A DNA stretch of 64,000 bases from Bdellovibrionota bacterium (GCA_050950765.1 JBMNIF010000002.1:544001-608000), one strand, 5' to 3'; shown: positions 6,156-25,424, numbered from the stretch's first letter. Notes: generated by a model not told the origin, from the sequence alone. A program made the numbers and translations.

Positions 6156-6305
6156 ACAGCTATAATTTTTTGACCCTCATAAAAATCTAGCTGATTCGGT
6201 TTTTAGTCGCAGCCCGCTCAATTATCACTAGAGGAAGGGTCGTCCCTAAAAAGCTCAAAACCGTCTCTGCTAACATCTTGATATTATTAGCTATTACAAT
6301 TTTAG

Positions 6306-7931
6306 CTAGAGATAGCCTCTTAGGTTTTCCATAACGGAGGTGATGTTTTGGAAATCTACATATTCACGCTGCACCTTAAGCTCTTGCGGTAGCACCTCCT
6401 GTTTAGAACCTTTATTATCAAGTCTAATAACGAAGAGGGATATTTTATCGGCGCACTTTTCATATTCATCTATAAGATCCTGTATACCATCCCCCTTTGT
6501 GATCGGAGTGTCCGTTATAACGATTACAGAACGGTTAAACTTAGCCTCTACTGCACAAACTTCCTTTAGCGCTTGAGTGATAGCACGACCTCCGCCGCTT
6601 GGCGCTCCTATATCAGCACGATCTGTTTGCAGACCTTTACCTTTACTTTTACTTTTTACCTTACTTTTTTGCATCAGATGCAGAGCGTCACTTACCTTAC
6701 TTTTATCTCCGACCTCAATCACACTATTTTTAGGAGACCCACCGTCTGCAACAATCAGGTGTAAAACATCTTCATTTTTAGGAGTAAGCCAAAACTTTCC
6801 CTCCTCATTTTTCGCAATATCTGCGAAGGCTTCTTTTAATTCAGCACTAAAACTATCTCTTAGCCCCATCTCCGCATTTAAAACAAATACTGCATAGCTC
6901 GGCTTTCTTAAAAACTCCTGATACCGTCCTAAAAACCTATTTAATTGAAACTTATTTAAGCCGCTCCGCGTTGAAGCCTTTTGCAAGGGGCTTAAACCTC
7001 GCCAACTTTCAGAATCGTAATACTTACCGAAAGGAGTTCTGAAAAATGCACCTGCTAACCTTTTTTGTGCAGTCTTTCCCGTTAAGTAACGTTTAATATC
7101 TCTCACAAGTTTTTGTCTCTCCTTATCGCCTTTATGGAGATAAACAAGTTGTGCACTTATCCCATAAGGAGCTTGTGTAAAGTAGAGTACATCTCTCGGG
7201 ATGAGCCCTTCTTGACGCATCTTTTTATTAAATCTAGCTGCCATGCGTTCTGTTACAATAACAGCATCATAGTTGGGGTCTTCAAAAACCCCTCTAAAAT
7301 CAAGGGGATTAGGAGAGATAAAAGCTGCATTAGCTATAAAACGTTTTAAACTTTTTCTTAATTCTAACGGATTTTTTTCCGTTCCTTTTTTTTCTGCTAG
7401 TTTTAGAACTCCCAGATAAGTAGATAACCCGACGGGATGGTGCGTTGGCGTTAAAAAAGCGTATTTTAAACCCCCTTTTAAAGTTTCCTCAAAAAAAGCT
7501 TCCGCCTTTAAGGTACGATGAAATCCGTCTTGAAACGGCTTCCCCTTATCCTTATTAAACGCCACAACTATGGGGCTAAACATAATCTGTTTTATCTCAA
7601 GAGCAAGTCTTGTCGCTGCGGAAAGTTGTAGCCACTCTATGGAGGGCATCAGCACGATATCTGGATTTTGCAAAAGGTCTTCCTGCTGTAACGTTTGTAA
7701 GATCTCCGTGCTGGAGAGGTAGCGCACCCTAAAATCGTATTTATGATCCTTACGTTGCTTAGCGTAGATAAATTCAGTAATTGTATTTCCCAACTCGTGC
7801 AGATCTGGTGTGGCGATTATCTCAAAGGTGGGACGTTTTATTACGTTATCACTTTGAAGGTGTCTAAAGACAATTCCGAGTGACACGATACAGATTATAC
7901 ATAAGGTTAAAAAAAGGAGCTTCTGTCTCAT
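6306..7931 (-). CDS. Exported solute-binding-like domain plus degenerate vWA domain protein
   Basis: N-terminal TM/signal, an IMFSPIVVAF...AGAFFRT SBP-like region, then RKPSYAVFVLN and SVIVITD in a vWA-like C-terminus. Confidence 0.55.
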   Translation of the reverse strand: MRQKLLFLTLCIICIVSLGIVFRHLQSDNVIKRPTFEIIATPDLHELGNTITEFIYAKQRKDHKYDFRVRYLSSTEILQTLQQEDLLQNPDIVLMPSIEWLQLSAATRLALEIKQIMFSPIVVAFNKDKGKPFQDGFHRTLKAEAFFEETLKGGLKYAFLTPTHHPVGLSTYLGVLKLAEKKGTEKNPLELRKSLKRFIANAAFISPNPLDFRGVFEDPNYDAVIVTERMAARFNKKMRQEGLIPRDVLYFTQAPYGISAQLVYLHKGDKERQKLVRDIKRYLTGKTAQKRLAGAFFRTPFGKYYDSESWRGLSPLQKASTRSGLNKFQLNRFLGRYQEFLRKPSYAVFVLNAEMGLRDSFSAELKEAFADIAKNEEGKFWLTPKNEDVLHLIVADGGSPKNSVIEVGDKSKVSDALHLMQKSKVKSKSKGKGLQTDRADIGAPSGGGRAITQALKEVCAVEAKFNRSVIVITDTPITKGDGIQDLIDEYEKCADKISLFVIRLDNKGSKQEVLPQELKVQREYVDFQNITSVMENLRGYL

Positions 7932-8151: not shown

Positions 8152-10053
8152 CTACTCAATCTCAACTATCTGATACGGATTAACCCCCACTACATAATCA
8201 TCCATAGCATCTTTAATCTGCTGGGCTTGCGTTCTGCAATCCGTAGTTACCAACTGACCGTAACGTGTTCGATCACATTGATTTTTGCGCCATTCAGCTC
8301 CATCACAGATCTCCCCCACCTGTGTTAGTAAGGGAGCCCAGACACCACCTGTATCAACTGCAAACTTATAAAGGTGCCGCATAGATTGGTAGAAAGGCTT
8401 AGAGGCGGTTTTGTTATTAAATACACCTTCACAATCACTACCAAAATCAGAACACCCTGAGCTCCCTCTTACAAAATCATATATACCGGTTTTATTTTTT
8501 GAAGACCTAAACTCAGCATCAGTAAAACACGTCCCCGTCTCAGTATTTTCTAAAGCAACCCAGTGTGGTCCCACATCCTTACCAACAGGAAAGATGTGTA
8601 GAGGGATATTGTTGGCTACCATAGTATTAACTACCCTCTGCAATTCATTCATGCCGTTTACATAGTAATTATAATCGCTTGCATTGCAATGTACTCCTGT
8701 AGTATCTCCATCCCAACAAGTTTGTAAACCATCAGTAAAAAGCACCACTGCATTAGAAACGTTTTCAGAAGCCCCCTCACTATCAGCAAGTAACCTCTGA
8801 ACCGCCTCTTCAAGCGCCTGCTTTATATGTGTTTGCCCCCTATTCGCTTGCGGACGTTTATTTATATCTACACTATCAAACATAGGGATTAAACCGTACC
8901 TAACAGCACGCTCTACACCAGCACTTACATTTGAAAAAGGATCACGCGTATTAATATCATCACTATCAAAGATACAGCCCTCTTCATCTGTATCTCCATC
9001 AGAGTAATCGGTAAAATTTATTAGTTGATCTAACTTATCGGTTAAGACCGTCATCCTTGGCCAGAAGAGACCGTTTGAAAACATTATAACTCCCGCCTTA
9101 TCTCCCGCTACGCTACGCGCCTTAAAAGCTTTTAAGGCGTTATGAATACCGTCATAGATATCAGCTAACGGTTGAGGTCTCCCTTTAGTGCCTACTCCCC
9201 TATAAGCATAAACATGGAAAGACTCTCTACTGCCAAAGTTATATCTTTCATCTCCGATCTCTCTAGTAAATTTATCTTTACACGGATCAGCTGTGCTTGG
9301 GCAAGGGTGGAGATCTCGAAGCTCGTTACAAGTAAAATTATTATAATCGTCATCACCAAGTACAAACTTCTGTTTGTAGTGCTTTGTATCTTCTCCAAAA
9401 GAAGTAAGCCTAAAAGTATAACAAGTATCACTTATCACATAATCAGGGCAATTATACTCAAAATTAAAGGTATCTTGTGTAGTAGAGAAAGAGGTATCAA
9501 CTAAAAAATAGATATGCCTCGGCACCACCATAGCCGTAGCTTTTACATAGGGGGCGATCTCTTTTATACCGAAGAACCTTCCAAAAGACATCTCCGTATC
9601 TCGTACATAGTTACCTGAGATACGTACGGCGTTAGGAGTGGTGCAATCTCCTGTCTCATCCGGAGTAAAAACCTGCTTTCCTAAGCTCTCGTCTCTCTTC
9701 CAACACCCCAACTCTAAACGAAAGAGGCTTTCTTCACCTAAACCAACTGCCCTTTGAGCAGACGCAGCATCTTCACTTTTAGGATCGTTATCATTTAATA
9801 ACTTATTTACAGCCTCTACGGCTGCCTCTTTTGCCGCTTCTTTAGTTTCGTTAAGTGCCCTCGCTGAAACGTACTCTTCTAAAGCTCTTAAAGTTGCAAG
9901 TTTGGTATTTTGTCTCGCTTTTTCAGCGTCGTTCATCATACGACTAACATCGATAACTATGGCAGCGAGACCAAAAATAACTATCATCGAGATACAGAAA
10001 AGAACCATAAAACCGCCGTTTTCTCGCTTCTTCATTAGCACCTTCCTTTTCAC
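8152..10053 (-). CDS. TadG-like minor pilin / tip adhesin with a vWA domain
   Basis: Pilin-like N-terminus RENGGFMVLFCISMIVIFGLAAIVID, MIDAS motif FLVDTSFST, and VVLFTDG. Confidence 0.85.
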   Translation of the reverse strand: MKRKVLMKKRENGGFMVLFCISMIVIFGLAAIVIDVSRMMNDAEKARQNTKLATLRALEEYVSARALNETKEAAKEAAVEAVNKLLNDNDPKSEDAASAQRAVGLGEESLFRLELGCWKRDESLGKQVFTPDETGDCTTPNAVRISGNYVRDTEMSFGRFFGIKEIAPYVKATAMVVPRHIYFLVDTSFSTTQDTFNFEYNCPDYVISDTCYTFRLTSFGEDTKHYKQKFVLGDDDYNNFTCNELRDLHPCPSTADPCKDKFTREIGDERYNFGSRESFHVYAYRGVGTKGRPQPLADIYDGIHNALKAFKARSVAGDKAGVIMFSNGLFWPRMTVLTDKLDQLINFTDYSDGDTDEEGCIFDSDDINTRDPFSNVSAGVERAVRYGLIPMFDSVDINKRPQANRGQTHIKQALEEAVQRLLADSEGASENVSNAVVLFTDGLQTCWDGDTTGVHCNASDYNYYVNGMNELQRVVNTMVANNIPLHIFPVGKDVGPHWVALENTETGTCFTDAEFRSSKNKTGIYDFVRGSSGCSDFGSDCEGVFNNKTASKPFYQSMRHLYKFAVDTGGVWAPLLTQVGEICDGAEWRKNQCDRTRYGQLVTTDCRTQAQQIKDAMDDYVVGVNPYQIVEIE

Positions 10054-10176
10054 TATTATTTAATCGATAACATTACTTTTTCTCGAGCTATTAAGATTAT
10101 AAATTTAACTCTACTATTTAAGTATTACGTAACACTTACTTCTTAAGATATCTAAAACTTATTACTAATAAGGTAG

Positions 10177-10218
10177 AGAGAAGGATTATAAAGTTACTCG
10201 CTATCATAATCCTTCTCT
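10177..10218. terminator. 13-bp stem hairpin between the giant TadE and TadG-like genes
   Basis: AGAGAAGGATTAT-N16-ATAATCCTTCTCT. Confidence 0.5.
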
Positions 10219-10239
10219 GCATTTTTTAATTATTCTTCC

Positions 10240-13200
10240 TTAACCTTGCTTGCTACGCACAACCCACTCACTTGTCGTTTCCATATAGTCACACCCAGCT
10301 ATCTTTGTAATATCTCCGCAATTTTCGATCTCAGATTCTGTCATACATACTTTTTTCTCACCTATGGTAACTTCTTTTTTACCACTTTCACAAACGCACA
10401 CACACTCACCTTTACTATTTCTTGAAGCAACAAGGCTTTGATGCCCACATTGAATTTTTGTCTCATCACATCCGCAAGCGCACTCATCGGCGTAATACCT
10501 TTCATCTTCTCCACAGCCGATATTTATTTTAGAATTACCCTTAAGATTTCCATTATCATCGTACTTACAGACACAAGTATTGTCTTCTACAATCTCGTTC
10601 TCGCCGCAACTTACACACTCTTCATTTTGCATTACAAACCCTGAATTGCAGATACAATCACCTACTTCTTCATCCCATACTGAGTTTTCAGTACACGTCT
10701 GACATTCACAATAAGAACCATTCATAACGAGGTGTTGGTTCTCTCCTTGACAGAAATCTCCTAGGTTTGCAGCACCTGCCCCGTCTTTTTTCTTAGCACG
10801 TCCTGTTAATGAGTCTCTATCATAGATACAAGCACACTGCGTATATATAGATGCAGAACTACTTCCACTATGCGGCACAAGTTCTGTCCCATCAGGGCAA
10901 AAATCACAACTACAATTAGTCGTATCTATTAAATATTGCCCCTGCTCATGACACTTTTCTTCACTAGTTGTTATATCATCATCACCATCAATCCCAGTTG
11001 TACAGTCGCAACCAGTACCATCTTCATTTCCAACAAAAACTGTGCCATCTTCTGCGCAATCAACACATTCACAAGATGCTTCCTTAAATTGTTTACCTTC
11101 ATGAGCGCACTTTTCCTTTACAAGCGCTTGAACTTCTTCACTACACTCACAATTTAGTGACTTGCTATCAGTTGGTGTTTGAGAATCTTCAAGGGTGTTC
11201 GGAGTGCCCGCTCTATAATTACCGTCACAGATACACCCCGACCCATCTTCAGATAATCTTTGATTGGGATTAGTAGTGCACGTCACACACGCACACTCTG
11301 CATAATCAAAGTATTCATCGTCGTTGTCACATTCTTCTTCGAAGTGTTTTCCACCTTCTTCACTATACTTACACTCTTCACAGTTTAACTTTGTTATATC
11401 TGAAGACTCACCTAACTTATGATAAGAATCGCACGCACAAGCTTCTACTCCGACCCCTCCAGTACTTGTAGTATTCTCTCCGCAAGAGAGGCAGTCACAC
11501 TTTTCATAATCGAAGTATGTACCTTCAGGACATTTAGTACCATCACTACCAAATGCAGCGCCGTCTACGTCTGAAGCATATTTACAAACGCAATCTCCTA
11601 TCTCTTCACCTTCAGTAGATATAGTTTGATATGGAGTACAACAACTGCACTGAGTTATACTAAAGTTTCTTGAGTCCTTAATACAGGCTTCGTATTTGGT
11701 TTTAGTCTCTCCCTCTGTTATATTACAGGAACAGGTGCTACCTTTTACCGCTACACTATCTTCACATTTACAATAAGCAGCGTTACCTTCTCTAATAAAC
11801 GTACCACCTGTTTTTTCGCATAACTCTTCAAGCGTAGCAATATCAACATTATTAGGTCCAGCACCGGAGCTATTGCCCTTACCGTCGCCACCGCCGCTAC
11901 CACCTTTTCCGCACTTTGCAGAATCTGTACAGGTACAACTTAAGCCGTCACCTTTATAGCCGTTAGTAGTATCACAGACACAAGTTGTACCATTAAAAGT
12001 TGCTCCCGTAGCAGTACAACACTTCTCCTCCTTGCAGGAACACGATCCCTTTTCACTGTAATAACCTTGTGAGTTGTCGCAGACGCAAGTATGGTTACCT
12101 TGTGCATCAGTACCTGCCGCATAACCTTTCTTAGAATCACAAACACAGTTCCCATTAGCATCTTGGAAGGTATTGGCTATACAAATACACCCTGCTTCTG
12201 TTGCTTCTCTAAAATCTTGATTTCGACAAACACAGTTATCTGTCCCTGCTTCAAACTCATTACTGACACAGGTGCAACTACCATTTATCAGTGAACGATT
12301 GTTTTCACAGACACAGTTTCCGCCGTATGCCTTAAAGTATTTATTCTCATCACAGACACAGATACCGTCTTTCCTTATATAATTATTACGGCAGACGCAG
12401 TTAGGCAGCTTAACAGAAACGCCCTCTATTGTCTCAGTTTTATAACTCAATACCTCATTATTCGAACAACTTCCTATACCACCACAATCACAAGTATCTT
12501 CGCTAAATGGATTATAACCATGATCCTTACACCAAGCAGAGATCTCTCTTTTTTGAGCTTCTGTATAATTACATTCACACCTTTCAGTAGCAGAATTGTA
12601 AGTTTTATTTCTATCCCTACATTCGCAATCGCAGGTAGCTTTATTAAACTTTAAACCTCGATCACTACACCATTTTTGCACTGCCGTTTCATTACAAGAG
12701 CCGCCACCGCCGCCACCTGCTAGATCTCCAGCAGCTACTCCACCTCCTGTAATACCATCAGAGATATCACAGCTACAGATCTCAGTGTAATACGCCACCT
12801 TTTTATCGTAGCAGTATTGTTTAGAATTTGGTGTATTAGCCTCCTCATCATCACACTCACAGGCACAGGTATCTGTATTTAACTTACCAAGCCCGTTCTT
12901 TGTTATACAATCTTCAGGGGTAAGGGGGCACTCACAAACCATACTCCCCTCTTCCTCTGTAACTACAAAGTTCTCAGGACAGACACACTCATAATACCCT
13001 TTTTTAGTCTCTTTTACCGTCCAAGCTCCACTTCCACAAGAATCACAGGAGCAGGTCTCTGCGTTAAAGATAGAAGCTCCTTGCCTAGTACAATCATCTT
13101 GAGAATCCCTATATTTAGGACATTGACATTCACAATAATACTTCGTCTCTTTTTTTTCATTTATAGTTATAGTTTTAGATTTTTTACTAGGTACCTTATT

Positions 13201-14901
13201 CCCCTTACATCCATTAGGATCACAACTAAGCTCACATGTATATTTATCGTTATTTTTAATAAGGTGTGCTTGGAGCATTTTATCTCCATCTAATCCACCT
13301 AGCTTTGAAACATCACATTCGCACATACAGTTATCTTGATTAACTTTCTGATGGTCAGGATCGTAGCAGTTACTATTCTCTTTAAAATATTCTTTTAAAG
13401 TATATATTTTGTAACAATCACAACTATCACGTGCCGTTCTTCCCTTTTTAGCTGGATCGCTACAAGCACAATATAAAGATGAAGAGTTAGCACTTCTCTC
13501 AGTGCCTTCAGGACAATCGACACAAGTCCAGTGCCCATCGATTACTTGTACAGTTTGATTATCTTCACAATCACAATCACAAGTTGGAATTTGGCTTGAA
13601 GGTGTCAAGCTTTTACAAAGCCCTTTTTCACATTCGCACCATTCATTTCCTGCCCCATCACTCTTTTTAACAGAGCCTCGATTACATATTTGACAATTAC
13701 CGCTGGCATTTTTTACATAATTATCATTACAAACACACTCTAAACCATCTTCAGAGGCGTGCGCATTAGATCCGCACTGTACGCACTGACAGGCACTATT
13801 AACTACTGTTTTACACCCTTCAAAAGTTGCCTCATCAGTAGGTTTAAGATCTGTTGGTGTAGGATTAGCACTATTGTCGCAACAGATACTATCACCAACC
13901 TCCTTCCAAACTAGCTTTGAATAATCGCAGACACAACTGTTATCTTCTGCGCTATACTCTTGATTCTCCGCACAGTTATTACAGTAACAGCCGCCACCTG
14001 TCTCGTAAGTGCCGACTACGCCTGCACACACAAAGCCACTCCCCTCGATATCATAGAGGCATCGACATCCACTCCCTTCTTCATCTGTATACAACACCTC
14101 ATTTGGTCCACAATTTGTTGTATTATTTACACATGCACAGACTCCACGCTCATCTCTAATAGCGACCTGATAGGCGGTATTACAATTAATCAGTTCAGGC
14201 TTACAAAGACACTTTCCATCTTCATCCTTTTCACACTCTAATAACGGCGGCATATTTGATTTCGTACTAAGCTCTCTATAAGCAGAAGCTTTAGCTGTAA
14301 AAACAAAATCAGGTATCCACGGTGAAAGTGTTTTATACTTGGTGTGGACTGTCACTTCTATTGGGATTCTAGTTAGACCGTCTCTTAACGATTTCGATTC
14401 CTCAGTAGCTTCACCCTCAAGAGCGTACTTAGCTCCTTGAACGGGGAGTTTAATCTCTATTATTCCTTTATCTGTTGCTTTTCCTTGCTCGTCATCTCTT
14501 ACAGCTAATAGCTGCACAACCCCTTTGTCATTAACCTTTCTCTCTTCAATCTCTTTATCGTTTAGAGTTCCGATTAAAAAACCCTCCATATACTTATAAG
14601 CACGGTCTCTAATGCTTATCATCGCAGGTGCATTTTCTTGAATACCAACTTCACTACACTCTTCCTGACCAGTATTCATATTCACTACGCAAAGATCTTT
14701 GACCACATCTTCAAGATCCGGCACAACAGCTGCCAGTTGTGCAGCCTGTTCTGCTGCATTTTGGATGGTGGTCTTAGCATAAAGCGCAAATGAAAAGTCT
14801 ATAATTCCTAAAATTAGGATTAGGAATATCGGTATTCCTATGGCGAACTCAACCATCGTTGCACCACAATTTCTTACGTTGTTATTTTTAATAGTAGTCA
14901 T
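10240..14901 (-). CDS. Giant TadE/TadF-like pilin with a ~1300-aa cysteine-rich (CXC/CXCXC, EGF-like) C-terminal region
   Basis: G|ATMVEFAIGIPIFLILILGIIDF and NAAEQAAQLAAV give the TadE signature, followed by dense Cys motifs. The start is refined to the ATG at 14901 after a GAGG RBS (ORF track: 14928). Confidence 0.85.
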   Translation of the reverse strand: MTTIKNNNVRNCGATMVEFAIGIPIFLILILGIIDFSFALYAKTTIQNAAEQAAQLAAVVPDLEDVVKDLCVVNMNTGQEECSEVGIQENAPAMISIRDRAYKYMEGFLIGTLNDKEIEERKVNDKGVVQLLAVRDDEQGKATDKGIIEIKLPVQGAKYALEGEATEESKSLRDGLTRIPIEVTVHTKYKTLSPWIPDFVFTAKASAYRELSTKSNMPPLLECEKDEDGKCLCKPELINCNTAYQVAIRDERGVCACVNNTTNCGPNEVLYTDEEGSGCRCLYDIEGSGFVCAGVVGTYETGGGCYCNNCAENQEYSAEDNSCVCDYSKLVWKEVGDSICCDNSANPTPTDLKPTDEATFEGCKTVVNSACQCVQCGSNAHASEDGLECVCNDNYVKNASGNCQICNRGSVKKSDGAGNEWCECEKGLCKSLTPSSQIPTCDCDCEDNQTVQVIDGHWTCVDCPEGTERSANSSSLYCACSDPAKKGRTARDSCDCYKIYTLKEYFKENSNCYDPDHQKVNQDNCMCECDVSKLGGLDGDKMLQAHLIKNNDKYTCELSCDPNGCKGNKVPSKKSKTITINEKKETKYYCECQCPKYRDSQDDCTRQGASIFNAETCSCDSCGSGAWTVKETKKGYYECVCPENFVVTEEEGSMVCECPLTPEDCITKNGLGKLNTDTCACECDDEEANTPNSKQYCYDKKVAYYTEICSCDISDGITGGGVAAGDLAGGGGGGSCNETAVQKWCSDRGLKFNKATCDCECRDRNKTYNSATERCECNYTEAQKREISAWCKDHGYNPFSEDTCDCGGIGSCSNNEVLSYKTETIEGVSVKLPNCVCRNNYIRKDGICVCDENKYFKAYGGNCVCENNRSLINGSCTCVSNEFEAGTDNCVCRNQDFREATEAGCICIANTFQDANGNCVCDSKKGYAAGTDAQGNHTCVCDNSQGYYSEKGSCSCKEEKCCTATGATFNGTTCVCDTTNGYKGDGLSCTCTDSAKCGKGGSGGGDGKGNSSGAGPNNVDIATLEELCEKTGGTFIREGNAAYCKCEDSVAVKGSTCSCNITEGETKTKYEACIKDSRNFSITQCSCCTPYQTISTEGEEIGDCVCKYASDVDGAAFGSDGTKCPEGTYFDYEKCDCLSCGENTTSTGGVGVEACACDSYHKLGESSDITKLNCEECKYSEEGGKHFEEECDNDDEYFDYAECACVTCTTNPNQRLSEDGSGCICDGNYRAGTPNTLEDSQTPTDSKSLNCECSEEVQALVKEKCAHEGKQFKEASCECVDCAEDGTVFVGNEDGTGCDCTTGIDGDDDITTSEEKCHEQGQYLIDTTNCSCDFCPDGTELVPHSGSSSASIYTQCACIYDRDSLTGRAKKKDGAGAANLGDFCQGENQHLVMNGSYCECQTCTENSVWDEEVGDCICNSGFVMQNEECVSCGENEIVEDNTCVCKYDDNGNLKGNSKINIGCGEDERYYADECACGCDETKIQCGHQSLVASRNSKGECVCVCESGKKEVTIGEKKVCMTESEIENCGDITKIAGCDYMETTSEWVVRSKQG

Positions 14902-14931
14902 AATAATTACCTCATTAAATACCAACACTTC

Positions 14932-15600
14932 CTAGTTTCTAATCAGATATGGAGTAGTCTCCGTTATAGTAACGTCAGCCTTACCTCCTATAAACACCGC
15001 GAAATTAAAGATACTTTTATACGGCACCGAGACCTCTACCTTCACACGAGTGACTGAGGAAACTGAATAAACAACATCCTCTGTATTATCATTTTTTTCA
15101 GCACACGGTTTGTACTCATCGCCACACAAGGTTTCAACTTTTCTAATAGATCCCTCTGGCTCAATATAATTCGAATATCCCGCCCATCTAGGCGGTTTTT
15201 GTCTTCTTAAAAGTGAATTAACCCTATCTAATACAGCGTACTGCGCAACGTTACTGCCATCTATAACAGAAGAACGCTCTCCATTCCCCACCTCCGTAGC
15301 ATACCCCTTTCCGATACTCGGTCTCGAAGCAGCAAACCTAGCACCTTCATAAGCGATACTTTTTAATTTGAAGTATTCGTTCAAATAACAGGAGACTTCA
15401 AAGATGCCGACCAATATCAGTAGCATCACAGGAGCAACCAGCGCTAACTCTACTAAAACCAATCCACGCTCTTTTATATTTTTCCTGCTCGTGCTTTTAG
15501 AAGAGGGGAAAAGGTGAGATAACCCTCTGTAAAATTTTGTCCTTTCTGTTTTTTCTGAAGCACTAAGCATAATTAAACCGAAAAAACTTATAACAACCAC
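14932..15600 (-). CDS. TadE/TadF family minor pilin
   Basis: ERG|LVLVELALVAPVMLLILVGIFE and AYEGARFAAS. The start codon is uncertain. Confidence 0.85.
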   Translation of the reverse strand: MVVISFFGLIMLSASEKTERTKFYRGLSHLFPSSKSTSRKNIKERGLVLVELALVAPVMLLILVGIFEVSCYLNEYFKLKSIAYEGARFAASRPSIGKGYATEVGNGERSSVIDGSNVAQYAVLDRVNSLLRRQKPPRWAGYSNYIEPEGSIRKVETLCGDEYKPCAEKNDNTEDVVYSVSSVTRVKVEVSVPYKSIFNFAVFIGGKADVTITETTPYLIRN

Positions 15601-16074: not shown

Positions 16075-16656
16075 GTGCTAAGCATGTTTAACATTACTAA
16101 TCTTTTTCAAGATTTTTCCCTCGAACTCTTCTTCTGGATCTGCGCCATAATAGGTACATTGATCTTTTCCATCCGCCTTTTTATGACGATTTCAGGGCTC
16201 GGTGGTGATGATTTAATCTCAGAAGGTGTAGATGATATCGATGCAGATAGCGGATTAAACCTCATCTCTCTTACAACTGTTGTCGCCTTTATAATGATGT
16301 TCGGCTGGGTCGGTATCGCCAGTCTAAAAGCAGATAATGTCGGCGCTGGATTTTCAATATTATTTGCCACCGTCGCCGGTCTCTTGACTATGGTTCTTAT
16401 CGCTTACCTTTTTAAGTGGATCTTCTCTCTGACAGAGCAAGGTGATGTTTTTCAACCTTCCGACGCTCTAGGAAAAACTGCTGAAGTTTTTGAAAAGATC
16501 TCAGCAGGGGGTAAGGGTATGGTCTTTTTAAATATGCAAGGTCATAGAAGAGAGTTTACAGCCACTTCCGAAGATGGCGAGGAGATCCCCTCTTTTACTA
16601 AAGTAGTTATTCAAAAGATCGTTGATCAATCTTCAGTTGTAGTAAAAAAACTTTAA
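16075..16656 (+). CDS. NfeD-like membrane protein (flotillin partner)
   Basis: Three TM helices plus a C-terminal OB-like GKTAEV...GKGMV...REFTA region, directly upstream of flotillin. Confidence 0.8.
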   Translation: MLSMFNITNLFQDFSLELFFWICAIIGTLIFSIRLFMTISGLGGDDLISEGVDDIDADSGLNLISLTTVVAFIMMFGWVGIASLKADNVGAGFSILFATVAGLLTMVLIAYLFKWIFSLTEQGDVFQPSDALGKTAEVFEKISAGGKGMVFLNMQGHRREFTATSEDGEEIPSFTKVVIQKIVDQSSVVVKKL

Positions 16657-16676
16657 CCCTATTTAAGGAGCATACT

Positions 16677-18230
16677 ATGCCAACAGCTTTTGCAATTATC
16701 CTAATTATCCTATTTTTAATAGGCTTTTCAGTGATGCTGACGATCCCGCGCATCTATGTGCGCTGCCCCTCTAATAAAGTATTGGTAGTTTGGGGTAAAG
16801 TGAAGGGAGGAAGCGCAAAGTGTCATTTAGGCGGAGCACATCTTATTATTCCTATTTTTCAGGATGCAGCTTTTCTGGACTTAACTCCGATGACGATCAA
16901 TATTCCACTGCGAGGGGCACTCTCAAAGGAAAATATCCGTGTAAATGTACCCAGCACATTTACCATTAAGATCGATGCTCGTCCTGATTCTGTAGGTAAC
17001 GCCGCTACCTCACTACTCGGTTTAGCACGCCATGAAATAGAATCTATGGCGACAGAGATCTTAACAGGACAACTTCGTTTGACGGTAGCATCTTTAACTA
17101 TTGAAGAGATCAATCAGAACAGAGAACGGTTCTTAGAAGTTATCCGTGACAATATCCAGCCGGAGCTGCAAAAGATCGGCTTAAGTCTAATTAACGTTAA
17201 TATTACAGATATCACCGATGAATCAGGTTACATCGAAAGCATCGGTAAAAAGGCGGCTTCAACAGCTCTTAACCAAGCTAAAATTGATGTTGCTCAACAA
17301 GAAAAACTTGGAGAGGTCGGTAAGGCTCAAGCTGATAGAGACCGTCGTATGCAAGTTGCACAACTTAACGCAGAAGCGGTTGAAGGTGAAAATGTTGCAG
17401 CAGCTAAGATCGCTTCCTTTAATGCAGATTTAGCAGAAAAAAATGCAGAAGCGCAGCGTCGTTCTGAAATTGCAGCACAGATTGCAGATGCTAAGATCCA
17501 AGAAGAGCGCGCTAACGCTGAAAAAGCCAGACTCCTCGCCGACGAAGTTGTTCCGAGAGAGATCGCAAAACGTAAACTTGAGATCGATTCTGCTGCTCGA
17601 GCAGCACAGATGAAGATCGAAGCCGAAGGTCGCTCTTCTCAATTACAGATCGACTCCTCAGCACGCGCTGCACAGATGAAGATCGAGGCTGAAGGTAGAG
17701 CGGCACAGATGGAGATCGAGGCTGGTGGTAAATCAGCGCAGATGAAGATCGAGGCTGAAGGTAGAGCGGAGCAACTTCGGGCGGAAGCAGCAGGTCAAGC
17801 TGATGCTATCATCTCCGTACAAAGTGCAGAAGCTGAAGGTCAATACAAGGTGCTTGTTTCAAAAGCACGCGGTTATCAAGACCTCGTAAAGTCCTGCACC
17901 ACCGCACAAGATGCCACAACTATCTTATTAGTTGAAAAGATGGAAGACCTTGTAAAACTTCAAACAGAAGCTATCAAAAACATCAAGATTGATAAGATCA
18001 CAGTTTGGGATAGTGGCAACAACGAAAAAGGTAGCTCAACTGCTAACTTTATGAGTAGTATGGTTAAAAGCTTACCAACATTGCACGATGTAGCAGGTAT
18101 GGCGGGAGTTAATTTACCTGCTTACTTAGGTGATATAAAACCTATCGCCAAGCCTCTGCCAAGCGCTCAAGGTGGTATCCCAACTCAATCAACAGAGAAA
18201 AGCACTCCACCAAGTGCACCTGCTAAATAA
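16677..18230 (+). CDS. Flotillin/SPFH family protein
   Basis: SPFH domain (YVRCPSNKVLVVWG, ALSKENIRVNVPSTFTI, GQLRLTVASLTIEEIN) followed by an Ala/Glu coiled coil. Confidence 0.9.
   Translation: MPTAFAIILIILFLIGFSVMLTIPRIYVRCPSNKVLVVWGKVKGGSAKCHLGGAHLIIPIFQDAAFLDLTPMTINIPLRGALSKENIRVNVPSTFTIKIDARPDSVGNAATSLLGLARHEIESMATEILTGQLRLTVASLTIEEINQNRERFLEVIRDNIQPELQKIGLSLINVNITDITDESGYIESIGKKAASTALNQAKIDVAQQEKLGEVGKAQADRDRRMQVAQLNAEAVEGENVAAAKIASFNADLAEKNAEAQRRSEIAAQIADAKIQEERANAEKARLLADEVVPREIAKRKLEIDSAARAAQMKIEAEGRSSQLQIDSSARAAQMKIEAEGRAAQMEIEAGGKSAQMKIEAEGRAEQLRAEAAGQADAIISVQSAEAEGQYKVLVSKARGYQDLVKSCTTAQDATTILLVEKMEDLVKLQTEAIKNIKIDKITVWDSGNNEKGSSTANFMSSMVKSLPTLHDVAGMAGVNLPAYLGDIKPIAKPLPSAQGGIPTQSTEKSTPPSAPAK
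17576..17775 (+). repeat. 11-aa (33-bp) coding repeats in the flotillin coiled coil
   Basis: RAAQMKIEAEG-like units recur about five times. Confidence 0.75.
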
Positions 18231-22409: not shown

Positions 22410-25400
22410 ATGCAGAAGTTTACCTTAAGAACCTTGAAATTAGTTGTGCTGTTTAGCTTTTTCTGTGGCAGTCTGGCAGGTGCGGAAACTTTTTTGCCAA
22501 CCACTCAAAATTATAACTATAATTTCAACATCCTAAACAACTTATCAACACCGCCTACTGCACAAAACTTTAATATTAAAAACTTCTCTCTCTTCTCTAC
22601 CTTAAAAAAATCACTCCCCTTTAGAAGAGAGTTCTTTGGAAATCCTCCCCCTTATCTAGCAGCGCAAGTAACCTCCATCTCTATGGGCTACTTTCACGCC
22701 TGTGCTATTGTAGGAGGGCGTCTCTATTGTTGGGGGCTTAACTCCTCCGGTCAACTCGGGATTAACAGCACTGACACCACAACAACTCCAACTTTAACTT
22801 ACGACCCTAGCACAACCTCTTTTACAGGTTTATTAGGTGGTCAAGGTGTCTCTTCTGTTTCTGCTAATGGTTATAACACCTGCGCTATCAACGCAGACGG
22901 TAAACTTTACTGTTGGGGAGAAAATGACTCTGGTCAAGTCGGGAATGGAACTCTAGGATTTGATTGTAAGTATCCAGTATTAATTGAAGATCCAAGTACA
23001 CTTTCTTGTAGTGGTCTTCTAGGTTCAGAAACAGTTATCGCCGTTTCAGTAGGTGCTTCGCCCAACGACACTCCTGAAGGAGAGAGCTCCGGTAGAACTC
23101 ACGTTTGCGCTATAAATGCAGATGATAAACTTTACTGTTGGGGAGATAACACCTTCGGACAATTAGGCGACGGACAAAGCGGAGGGTCTTTACCGCGTCT
23201 TGTAGGGGATAGCGGAACTTTAAATGGAAGAGGTGTTGTTCAAGTTTCAGCAGGATACAGTTTTACCTGTGCTATCAATACAGAGAGTCTCCTTTTTTGT
23301 TGGGGCAAAAACGATTACGGACAGTTGGGGATTTATTCAACAGAAAATACCACCTCCCCCACACCTATATATAATGCAGATCCAGAAAAAGTTGGTGGAC
23401 TTGGAACTGGAAACGATCCAGCGGTTATGTCAGTTTCAGCAGGTACAACTCACACCTGTGCCATAGAGAGCGGATATCTTTTCTGTTGGGGAGATGGTAG
23501 TTATGGAGCGCTTGGAAATGGTGATGGAACAGATAGAAGTTTTCCAGTCGCTATCAATAAAGGATCTCCACCAGGTCAATTAGACGGAAGTATTGTTCTA
23601 TCTACCTCTTCAGGATCTGGTTTTACCTGCGCTATCAACGAGATCGGTGAAATTTATTGCTGGGGGAAAAATACTGATAAAAAACTACTCGGGATTAGTG
23701 GAGTAGATACTAGATTTCCCCAGCTTGTGGCAGGTTCAGATAGTAATCCCAATCCTGGCTTACTAGGCACATATACTGTAAATGCCGTTTCTTGTTCAAA
23801 CTCCGGTCCCTCCTATCAATCGATCTGCGGCATAAACTCACAACATAATCTTTATTGCTGGGGAGATAGTAACTTTGGTCAATTAGGACAAAACTCTACC
23901 ACTACCAATACAACACCGACACAAACACTCTTTAATGAAGACTCCACTTGTAACGGTATCGATGATGATGGTGATGGATTAACTGATGAAGATTACGTTT
24001 CTGTATCTTGTAACACAGGGCTACACGGTTTATGCGCAGCAGGAACAACATCTTGTAACGCCGGAAGTGTAGTTTGTAATCAGACAAATTCTCCTACAAC
24101 TGAGATCGCTTGTAATAATATCGATGATGACTGTGACGGTATAACTGATACTGATGCTGCAGGTTACGGAGCTGCTTGTAATAACGGGCTACTCGGTGCG
24201 TGTTACAAAACAGGCACGATGTCAGTTTGTGATGGAGGAGTTTTAACGTGCTCTGCTCCAAACGTTGAACCTACAACTGAAGTCGCTTGTAATAATATCG
24301 ATGATGACTGTGATGGAGTAACTGATACTGATGCTGCAGGTTACGGAGCTGCTTGCAATAACGGGTTACTCGGTGCGTGTTATAAAACAGGCACGATGTC
24401 AGTTTGTGATGGAGGAGTTTTAACGTGCTCTGCTCCAAACGTTGAACCTACAACTGAAGTCGCTTGTAATAATATCGATGATGACTGTGATGGAGTAACT
24501 GATACTGATGCTGCAGGTTACGGAGATGCTTGTAATAACGGACTACTCGGTGCGTGTTATAAAACAGGCACGATGTCAGTTTGTGATGGAGGAGTTTTAA
24601 CGTGCTCTGCTCCAAACGTTGAACCTACAACTGAAGTCGCTTGTAATAATATCGATGATGACTGTGATGGAGTAACTGATACTGATGCTGCAGGTTACGG
24701 AGCTGCTTGTAACAACGGACTACTCGGTGCGTGTTATAAAACAGGCACGATGACTCTTTGTGAAGGAGGGGTTTTAACGTGTTCTGCTCCAGATGCAGAT
24801 CCAGTAAGTGAAATTTGCGGTAACGGCATTGATGATGATTGTGATGGTGAAACTGATGAAGATTGCAATGCAGAAACTCCTACCCCTACCCCTCCAGCGC
24901 CTTTTGTAGATGCTTGTCCTACCGACCCGAATAAAACTGAAGCAGGAGTTTGCGGCTGCGGTATAGCCGATAGCGATCATAACAATAACGGCATAATTGA
25001 TTGCCTTGACCCGAAGTGGCCGACAACAAAAATAGATAGTATCGTTACACCAAACACCAAACCTGTCACTCCACGGGTAGATGTAGTAAAGAAAAAGGTC
25101 GTCGTTTATATGCAACGTTTTAAACGTGCCGAGCTACTGAAAAAATTACGTAACGTAGTTAACTATGCCAAAAAAAATAAAAGGAAAAAAATTACCTTTA
25201 GGTATGAAGTTGTTCTAAGACAGGTCTCTACTAAAACAACGTATAAAAGTATCACGAAGAAAAAGATTCAATCTCGGATCTCAAAACGTAATAAAGTAAT
25301 CTTTAAGAAACAGCGGCAAGGAACTTACAAAATTAAGTACAGAGTTAAGATCTATAAGAACGGTAAACTTGCTAAGAACACGAAGTGGAGCGATTCTAAA

Positions 25401-25424
25401 ACTGTTACAGTTTCGAAAAAGTAG
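22410..25424 (+). CDS. Secreted RCC1/BLIP-II repeat protein with MopE-type metal-binding repeats and a basic C-terminal domain
   Basis: Signal peptide, ~7 (H/T)xCAI...LYCWGxNxxGQLG repeats, CNNIDDDCDG motifs, CPTDPNKTEAGVCGC, a PTP linker and a Lys/Arg-rich C-terminus. Confidence 0.85.
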   Translation: MQKFTLRTLKLVVLFSFFCGSLAGAETFLPTTQNYNYNFNILNNLSTPPTAQNFNIKNFSLFSTLKKSLPFRREFFGNPPPYLAAQVTSISMGYFHACAIVGGRLYCWGLNSSGQLGINSTDTTTTPTLTYDPSTTSFTGLLGGQGVSSVSANGYNTCAINADGKLYCWGENDSGQVGNGTLGFDCKYPVLIEDPSTLSCSGLLGSETVIAVSVGASPNDTPEGESSGRTHVCAINADDKLYCWGDNTFGQLGDGQSGGSLPRLVGDSGTLNGRGVVQVSAGYSFTCAINTESLLFCWGKNDYGQLGIYSTENTTSPTPIYNADPEKVGGLGTGNDPAVMSVSAGTTHTCAIESGYLFCWGDGSYGALGNGDGTDRSFPVAINKGSPPGQLDGSIVLSTSSGSGFTCAINEIGEIYCWGKNTDKKLLGISGVDTRFPQLVAGSDSNPNPGLLGTYTVNAVSCSNSGPSYQSICGINSQHNLYCWGDSNFGQLGQNSTTTNTTPTQTLFNEDSTCNGIDDDGDGLTDEDYVSVSCNTGLHGLCAAGTTSCNAGSVVCNQTNSPTTEIACNNIDDDCDGITDTDAAGYGAACNNGLLGACYKTGTMSVCDGGVLTCSAPNVEPTTEVACNNIDDDCDGVTDTDAAGYGAACNNGLLGACYKTGTMSVCDGGVLTCSAPNVEPTTEVACNNIDDDCDGVTDTDAAGYGDACNNGLLGACYKTGTMSVCDGGVLTCSAPNVEPTTEVACNNIDDDCDGVTDTDAAGYGAACNNGLLGACYKTGTMTLCEGGVLTCSAPDADPVSEICGNGIDDDCDGETDEDCNAETPTPTPPAPFVDACPTDPNKTEAGVCGCGIADSDHNNNGIIDCLDPKWPTTKIDSIVTPNTKPVTPRVDVVKKKVVVYMQRFKRAELLKKLRNVVNYAKKNKRKKITFRYEVVLRQVSTKTTYKSITKKKIQSRISKRNKVIFKKQRQGTYKIKYRVKIYKNGKLAKNTKWSDSKTVTVSKK
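24093..24791 (+). repeat. 177-bp (59-aa) near-identical coding tandem repeat x~4
   Basis: CCTACAACTGA starts at 24093, 24270, 24447 and 24624; the unit is PTTEVACNNIDDDCDGVTDTDAAGYGAACNNGLLGACYKTGTMSVCDGGVLTCSAPNVE. Confidence 0.95.

Follow-up and report, generated by a model that had tools for sequence, protein, structure and literature searches.

The Cassette and Its Genes

We describe a cluster of three co-oriented minus-strand open reading frames (ORFs) at positions 8152-15600 of a 64,000-nucleotide stretch of DNA from a Bdellovibrionota bacterium (GCA_050950765.1 JBMNIF010000002.1:544001-608000). The whole stretch is called the window here, and the genome that holds it, which is 94% complete, is called G000, with contigs C1, C2 and C3. 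The cluster encodes a small TadE-type minor pilin, a giant TadE-type minor pilin and a large TadG-type pilin with a vWA domain (Table 1). In the giant protein the pilin domain takes up about 210 residues of the mature chain and a long cysteine-rich tail comes after it; the protein is an extreme member of a class-wide, unnamed family of middle pilins.

Both TadE-type ORFs score above the cut-off of the Pfam TadE/F family (PF07811, 22.9 bits). The small one, whose true start is probably later than that of the ORF, has the prepilin site G46/LVLVE, in which the Gly and the Glu at +5 are invariant among 12 aligned relatives. For the giant gene the likeliest start codon is the ATG at 14901, as a GAGG ribosome-binding site stands before it; the resulting protein has 1553 residues, and its prepilin site is G22/ATMVE (ORF numbering), with the Glu at +5 invariant in both TadE alignments (A1 and A4). 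The TadG-type protein, which likely starts at the ATG at 10035, consists of an N-terminal pilin helix and a vWA domain. Its VWA match exceeds the cut-off of 23.8 bits, its Tad match (16.2 bits) lies under that of 22.3, and it lacks the Glu at +5 of a typical prepilin. The original prediction, made from the window alone, had given all three genes prepilin-type N-termini, and the missing Glu is a correction to it. Its claim of an intact MIDAS (adhesion site dependent on a metal ion) is borne out: the site is complete (D186-x-S188-x-S190, T408, D441), and its first Asp, first Ser, Thr and second Asp are invariant among 14 aligned relatives. None of the three proteins is named above cut-off by NCBIfam.

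For residues 10-245 of the giant pilin AlphaFold2 gives a mean predicted local distance difference test score (pLDDT) of 69, with a helix at 11-59 at about 90; this model has no match in the PDB at E<=0.001 by Foldseek. The only hydrophobic segment of the protein is N-terminal. G000 encodes one A24 prepilin peptidase (C2:803497), by which the cassette pilins would likely be cleaved.

The giant gene is intact in other data. Contigs from four runs of other studies have no listed substitutions, indels or joints inside it; run X7 covers 30 of 30 bins, and contigs of X7 (14054-15029) and X10 (13995-14855) bridge the junction of pilin domain and tail, so the fusion is not the assembly chimera that the original prediction had named as a refuting case. 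In X8, one of the four runs, single contigs end loosely at 10541 and 11265 and 10676-11009 is uncovered; the tail may vary between strains here, or a contig may be chimeric. The source metagenomes holding the stretch come from anaerobic digester, biogas and bioreactor samples. Two metatranscriptomes yielded three identical contigs each, on the giant gene (X19, 13860-14858; X20, 12233-12471) and the TadG gene (X20, 9658-9978); as these sets were chosen for holding the stretch, without a silent control, the contigs are not counted as proof of expression. A third-codon-position G+C content of 0.29, against 0.35+-0.04 for the genome, gives no sign of recent transfer.

Table 1. Features of the pilin cassette and its downstream gene, in window coordinates.
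Feature	Position	Strand	Basis or content
Small TadE-type minor pilin	14932..15600	-	222 aa ORF; Pfam TadE 39.5 bits
Giant TadE-type minor pilin	10240..14928	-	Pfam TadE 54.4 bits; 1562 aa from GTG
Mature pilin domain, predicted long N-terminal helix and beta-sheet head	14236..14862	-	AlphaFold2 model
Cys-rich tail	10243..14235	-	About 1330 aa, 158 Cys, 57 CxC, 38 C-x(9-14)-CxC units
Gly-rich linker 1 (residues 728-744)	12697..12747	-	Sequence
CxC-x(10-12)-CxC short-hairpin array	11929..12438	-	Pfam DUF5874 (PF19202) match
Gly-rich linker 2 (residues 1009-1024)	11857..11904	-	Sequence
C-terminal cap, Cys-x-aromatic-x(3-7)-Trp/Tyr near end	10243..10377	-	Pattern count
TadG/CpaL-type large minor pilin with vWA	8152..10053	-	633 aa; Pfam VWA 34.9 bits
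Fourth gene, membrane-anchored SBP_bac_11 protein, weak vWA C-terminus	6306..7931	-	Pfam

The Cysteine-Rich Tail

The mature giant pilin has 160 cysteines, and its tail has a net charge of -109 and 1% His. The tail contains 57 CxC motifs, where 300 shuffles give 16.4+-3.6 (maximum 28), and 38 of the 57 have a Cys 9-14 residues before them, against 2.9 in shuffles. CxCxC occurs 7 times against 1.8+-1.5, but the shuffled maximum is also 7, so this motif alone is only borderline. All seven hexamers quoted in the original prediction, which saw CXC and CXCXC units broken by Gly linkers, are present, and two such linkers exist; the units are mostly CxC, with CXCXC in the minority. Cysteine spacing follows the grammar of BR3P, which is defined as CX10CXCXC or CX10CXC in the available part of PMC10328876: a relaxed BR3P motif occurs 13 times against 0.7 in shuffles, the strict CX10CXCXC once and CX10CXC six times. 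The Pfam CXCXC (PF03128) and EGF families do not match the window protein, whole or in nine fragments, whereas CXCXC is passed by 6 of 35 long or Cys-rich relatives picked from the best 150, and one relative reaches 26.2 for cEGF against a cut-off of 26.6. Of the earlier description of the tail as silk- or EGF-like, the silk-like motif grammar is supported, and the window protein belongs to neither family by Pfam. What does match is DUF5874, on residues 831-1000 (44.5 bits, cut-off 27.1), a family without known function of which a literature search found no mention.

In an AlphaFold2 model of residues 745-1015 (pLDDT 74; predicted template modelling score, pTM, 0.47), helix-hairpin units give way to a series of two-strand hairpins, and the run of hairpins in the DUF5874 region is predicted at a pLDDT of about 80. 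Tandem EGF proteins (NELL2, Pfs25, uromodulin) rank first among its Foldseek matches, which are non-significant (E 5e-3 or worse, query TM-score <0.2); in VIA the best Z is 3.5, and the best EGF row has Z 3.0, a root-mean-square deviation of 3.5 and 73 aligned residues. A phmmer search of a tail segment against the PDB returned a single row (E 0.12). Self-BLAST revealed no internal repeat in either of the two giant tails of the genome, and matches of tail segments to relatives were weak (best 47 bits, reversed control 36.6). A feature search of the Atlas gave first matches of 0.83 and 0.82 (DUF5874 in 42% of members), a level often reached by shuffled proteins, and was set aside. The cap pattern at the C-terminus, drawn after viewing the termini, ends 15 of 73 proteins of the CxC class against 0.4% at random internal cuts.

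Whether the cysteines pair with each other or bind metal was left undecided in the original prediction. Mature cysteine counts are even in 46 of the 60 scored proteins of the CxC class (p 4e-5; the other 13 of 73 are without a locatable cleavage site); the window protein and its giant paralogue (202) have even counts. CxxC is not enriched in the window tail (12 against 14.4 shuffled), and G000 encodes a VKOR-DsbA fusion as well as DsbA-like genes. Together with the scarcity of His, these features favour disulfides over bound metal as the predicted state of the tail cysteines.

Tad Machinery Elsewhere in the Genome

Profile scans found no match to Flp, T2SSE, T2SSF or RcpC inside the window, in line with the original claim that flp, tadABC and rcpA are missing there. 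The cluster is an orphan within the window only, for the genome holds the core Tad genes that the original prediction had proposed to look for: a first operon (C1:143940-149650) encodes a CpaE-like protein, an Flp-like ORF, CpaB, CpaF, TadB and TadC, a second (C3:605969-612818) a CpaE-like protein, two CpaB, CpaF, TadB and TadC, and Flp genes lie at C1:386741-387322. There are also other cassettes. One (C2:389343-398189) has the same four-gene order as the window and a TadE (C2:389933-395131) of 1732 residues with 70 CxC; another (C3:173025-176329) combines a TadG with a pair of plain TadE genes. Solitary pilin-like genes outside any cassette were also seen, encoding a TadE-like protein of 650 residues (L005:2350-4302) and a Tad-like protein of 459 (L007:2386-3765).

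The C3 operon lies in a longer array (C3:601265-616592) with the order PP2C-FHA-kinase-CpaE-CpaB x2-CpaF-TadB-TadC-SctV-kinase. Of 79 loci retrieved with the C3 CpaF, 59 have enough room downstream, and 53 of these carry an SctV-like gene no more than 3.5 kb downstream of CpaF. A second SctV-like gene adjoins SctJ-like and FliN_C genes (C1:16922-21096); the flagellar FlhA is separate. Both non-flagellar SctV-like genes fall below the NCBIfam equivalog cut-offs, and SctV was the Sct gene searched for. Around the second one (C1:16252-22554) a small non-flagellar type III-like cluster was observed, with a sigma factor, the SctJ-like and FliN_C proteins, the SctV-like protein, a TPR and an FHA protein, and no adjoining secretin.

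A Family of Tailed Middle Pilins

A profile was built from 11 middle-pilin domains. At E<=1e-12 it has matches in 49 of the 124 phylum genomes, and at E<=1e-10 it has 501 among 1.84 billion representatives. Fusions of a pilin to a Cys-rich region, which it had been suggested to seek in related genomes, are among them: the best 150 of the 501, a count that includes seed rows and in which the last profile columns favour the CxC class, divide into 69 with CxC-rich tails, 44 whose tails are Cys-rich in other ways, 17 with Thr/Pro/Ser-rich ones, 4 of the CGNG type, 12 short and 4 other. CxC-type proteins among these 150 have a median length of 531 residues, the longest being the G000 pair (1553 and 1732) and the next one 1206. 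Gene order is conserved across the class as well. Of 47 middle genes taken from loci, 32 leave room downstream and 31 of these are directly followed by a TadG-like gene, while a same-strand small TadE lies upstream in 35 of the 42 with room there; in one relative (L041:9982-10521) the small TadE points away from the CxC-tailed gene rather than being read in line with it.

In a FastTree phylogeny of 190 pilin domains, a clade of 71 rows (support 99) contains 68 of the 73 CxC-tailed proteins, both giants included; its CxC tails span 148-1543 residues, long ones occur in several subclades, and all 73 proteins of the class have strongly acidic tails. Sister clades instead have Thr/Pro stalks, most of the 66 closing in a knot of 4-10 Cys (7 do not), or CGNG/DUF4215 repeats, as would be expected of alternative spacers. 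One CxC clade, few changes of tail class and long tails in several subclades point to an old, inherited trait of the subfamily whose length has grown repeatedly. A CpaF relative at 69% identity (L177) is listed in the available part of PMC8103865 under Bdellovibrionota_B, class UBA2361; on this likeness the window organism probably belongs to UBA2361 too.

Comparison With Known Tip Pilins

The closest designs are the Kil Tips of Myxococcus xanthus (KilL/KilM/KilN, Tip1-4) as set out in the available sections of Herrou et al. (2025; PMC12075869). They too comprise several three-gene cassettes of TadE/F/G-like pilins away from the core Tad genes, each made up of a short, an extended and a large pilin and with predicted disulfides, and the Myxococcus genome has a needle-less type III export apparatus, to which the SctV-like genes of G000 may correspond. 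According to the same sections, the distal variable part of a Kil Tip is the large KilN pilin, and the extension of KilL wraps the trimer. In G000, by contrast, the middle pilin bears the extension, a repeat tail that reaches 1540 residues in the family, the large pilin has a vWA domain with MIDAS, SctV forms part of the Tad operon, and the searches recovered no KilC-type secretin. The likeness to KilL/M/N is one of gene layout and design. As given in part of PMC13200544, Kil systems occur in up to 81% of Bdellovibrionota genomes. In Caulobacter crescentus, CpaJ, CpaK and CpaL are two TadE-like pilins and a pilin-vWA protein, for which a priming role and a place at the pilus tip have been proposed; the accessible text of PMC13170226 describes no long tail for CpaJ/K, and Caulobacter, unlike G000 as searched here, has a CpaC secretin.

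The tail shares the C-x10-C-x-C(-x-C) grammar of BR3P and CXCXC (PF03128), known from Balbiani ring 3 protein and the silk homology domain of VEGF-C (PMC10328876, in part). It differs in loops that vary from 9 to 14 residues, in its single strict CX10CXCXC and in the missing PF03128 match; the likeness may reflect either homology or convergence. Literature searches found no description of a length-variable CxC stalk of up to 1540 residues on a middle pilin. The original prediction called the cluster the best candidate in the window for an undescribed adhesion system. Since the cassette appears to work like a known Tad Tip, it is of a kind already described rather than a separate new system, and what is new is the variant with a CxC-stalked middle pilin.

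A Proposed Stalked Tip and Its Alternatives

With moderate confidence we propose that the three pilins likely form one tip trimer, in which the tail of the middle pilin is predicted to be a chain of disulfide-closed hairpins and would form a long, acidic stalk directed at other cells. Read from the genome itself are the prepilin motifs, the conserved order of the cassette, the Tad motor and platform genes, the Flp pilins and a single prepilin peptidase. By analogy with Caulobacter CpaJKL and Myxococcus KilLMN, the helices of the three cleaved pilins would bundle and prime a Tad pilus, and the TadG-vWA protein would serve as a metal-dependent binding head whose MIDAS binds the ligand. In the periplasm, DsbA and VKOR would oxidise the tail, so that each CxC staples neighbouring hairpins. 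Tail length would then set reach, the window stalk measuring roughly 80-100 nm if it is extended like EGF arrays and their usual rise per residue applies; the two Gly linkers would act as hinges in this thin stalk, and binding specificity would lie in fast-diverging loops or in the small terminal cap. That the stalk is a spacer is argued by the tenfold range of lengths and by Thr/Pro stalks in the same position, while the stalk itself may also bind. The least certain step is the last one, in which the pilus would exit via PilQ or GspD, secretins that it would borrow, and work with the SctV-type export gate in contacting prey or host cells. The link between Tad and SctV suggests such contact by this uncultured lineage, and the genomic context as a whole fits the contact with host or prey that the original prediction had raised.

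Several observations weigh against this proposal. The fold match of the pilin domain is weak (VIA Z 3.5-4.4 to type IV pilins, unrelated rows up to 5.6), and the pTM of the tail model means that an extended shape is not shown. Cysteine counts are odd in 14 of the 60 mature proteins scored, parity of the tail alone is weaker (47 even, 26 odd), and in the locus-derived subset with the window protein only 5 of 11 tails are even; moreover, the disulfide reading comes from counts and gene content, not from pairing in model coordinates, and oxidative folding in anaerobic digesters needs an electron sink. The class of tail changes 6 times on the tree against 52 in shuffles (144 labelled rows), which indicates that tails are inherited and led us to reject the idea that they are freely swapped. 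No member of the lineage is cultured, and predation is a candidate trait only. Finally, the Tad secretin profile PF13629 has no match anywhere in G000, in keeping with the lack of rcpA that the original prediction had seen in the window, and passes its threshold in none of the 124 phylum genomes. Neither PF00263 nor a two-sequence profile recovered an RcpA/CpaC/KilC-type secretin from G000, although this does not prove absence. Each of the 43 near-complete genomes of the order shows one secretin or two, never three, and those of G000 sit in the PilQ and GspD loci. Surface export of the pilus is thus unproven: of the tip display originally suggested, the tip cassette is supported and the position outside the cell is not established.

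It is this gap that gives room to the idea, which we hold unlikely, that the trimer stays inside as the tip or scaffold of a periplasmic endopilus beside the SctV-type gate, its tail spanning the periplasm or binding secreted cargo. No RcpA/CpaC was found in G000 or the class, and the frequent joining of the Tad core to SctV (53 of 59 loci), together with the SctJ-like and FliN_C genes by the second SctV-like gene, would agree with it. A tail of 1330-1540 residues, if extended, would however far exceed what the periplasm needs, the presence of Flp pilins and of a vWA tip pilin with a MIDAS argues for adhesion at the surface, and a secretin that has diverged far may have escaped the searches. 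The sister clades speak in the same direction, as Thr/Pro stalks are typical of exposed proteins. A stalk that instead acts as silk-like glue, cross-linking molecules or the matrix of flocs and granules in general biofilm attachment rather than reaching particular cells, seems to us quite unlikely; the BR3P-like grammar (PMC10328876, in part), the sludge of bioreactors as habitat and the acidity of the tails suit it, but even cysteine counts fit intramolecular pairing, a minor pilin is a low-copy part of the tip and not a bulk fibre, and a Tad core tied to SctV and to kinase and FHA genes recalls the predation machine of Myxococcus.

We regard as very unlikely a metallothionein-like metal-thiolate fibre that would bind Zn, Fe or heavy metals under anoxia. 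The CxC motif is common in metallothioneins and the habitat is anoxic, yet CxxC is not enriched, His is rare, the loops between CxC motifs are regular, cysteine parity is even, and the protein is exported in an organism with Dsb/VKOR genes. Almost no credence remains for a long ORF produced by misassembly or by decay of a gene: a word-indexed search with the pilin domain among proteins of 859-2734 residues (818 candidates) matched only the protein itself, so that no close relative of similar length appeared, and the two loose ends of run X8 fall inside the tail, but clean contigs of four other studies, two of them across the junction, an intact paralogue of the same design and relatives of up to 1206 residues stand against it.

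Beyond the stalked tip that we favour lies a bolder conjecture, which is rather improbable as a whole: UBA2361 bacteria might run a hybrid of Tad pilus and type III export gate without a secretin of its own, whose interchangeable tip pilin bears a eukaryote-like disulfide stalk as a molecular ruler, and in the digester species the 1300-1500-residue stalk would cross the capsule, sheath or floc matrix of prey or host. If so, the organism would be a candidate for an anaerobic predator, and its Tad tip pilins would be the longest yet seen. On the favoured reading itself, the notion of an adaptable Tad tip widens from a variable TadG head to a length-variable stalk on the middle pilin, and there is a bacterial family with predicted disulfide hairpins of the BR3P/EGF kind. 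Two giant paralogues and a plain cassette in one genome offer expressible proteins for studying how an uncultured, possibly predatory digester lineage makes cell contact, and they bear on how a Tad pilus exits without a recognisable Tad secretin.

Neighbouring Genes and Other Observations

The fourth gene, downstream of the cassette, has a paralogue downstream of the second giant cassette too (L001:11123-12190; 25% identity, E 4e-31); with a single query it was found in G000 alone among 124 phylum genomes. Between it and position 6221 lies a short intergenic element (6221-6305) with many loose ends in all four runs, which resembles a repeat dispersed in the genome. Divergently upstream of the cassette (16075-18230) are a flotillin/Band 7 gene and a gene for a membrane protein that we take to be NfeD-like from its sequence.

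Nine places in G000 match Flagellin_N, and some of these are probably FlgL or fusions. Eukaryote-like surface proteins rich in Cys abound in the genome; at C2:783734-793831, C2:774805-780123, C1:116023-121572 and window 22410-25424 it encodes secreted proteins of very large size that combine RCC1 repeats with Cys-rich modules and with Thr/Pro stalks. Two near-identical secreted proteins (C3:2634-8078 and C2:1241165-1252138), beside Flp-like genes at contig ends, carry long Cys/Asp repeats of the form CPxDPxKTxPGICGCG; judging from a HEYxH motif, their N-terminus is presumably an M4-type metalloprotease, and one copy is split at C2:1244184-1244275.

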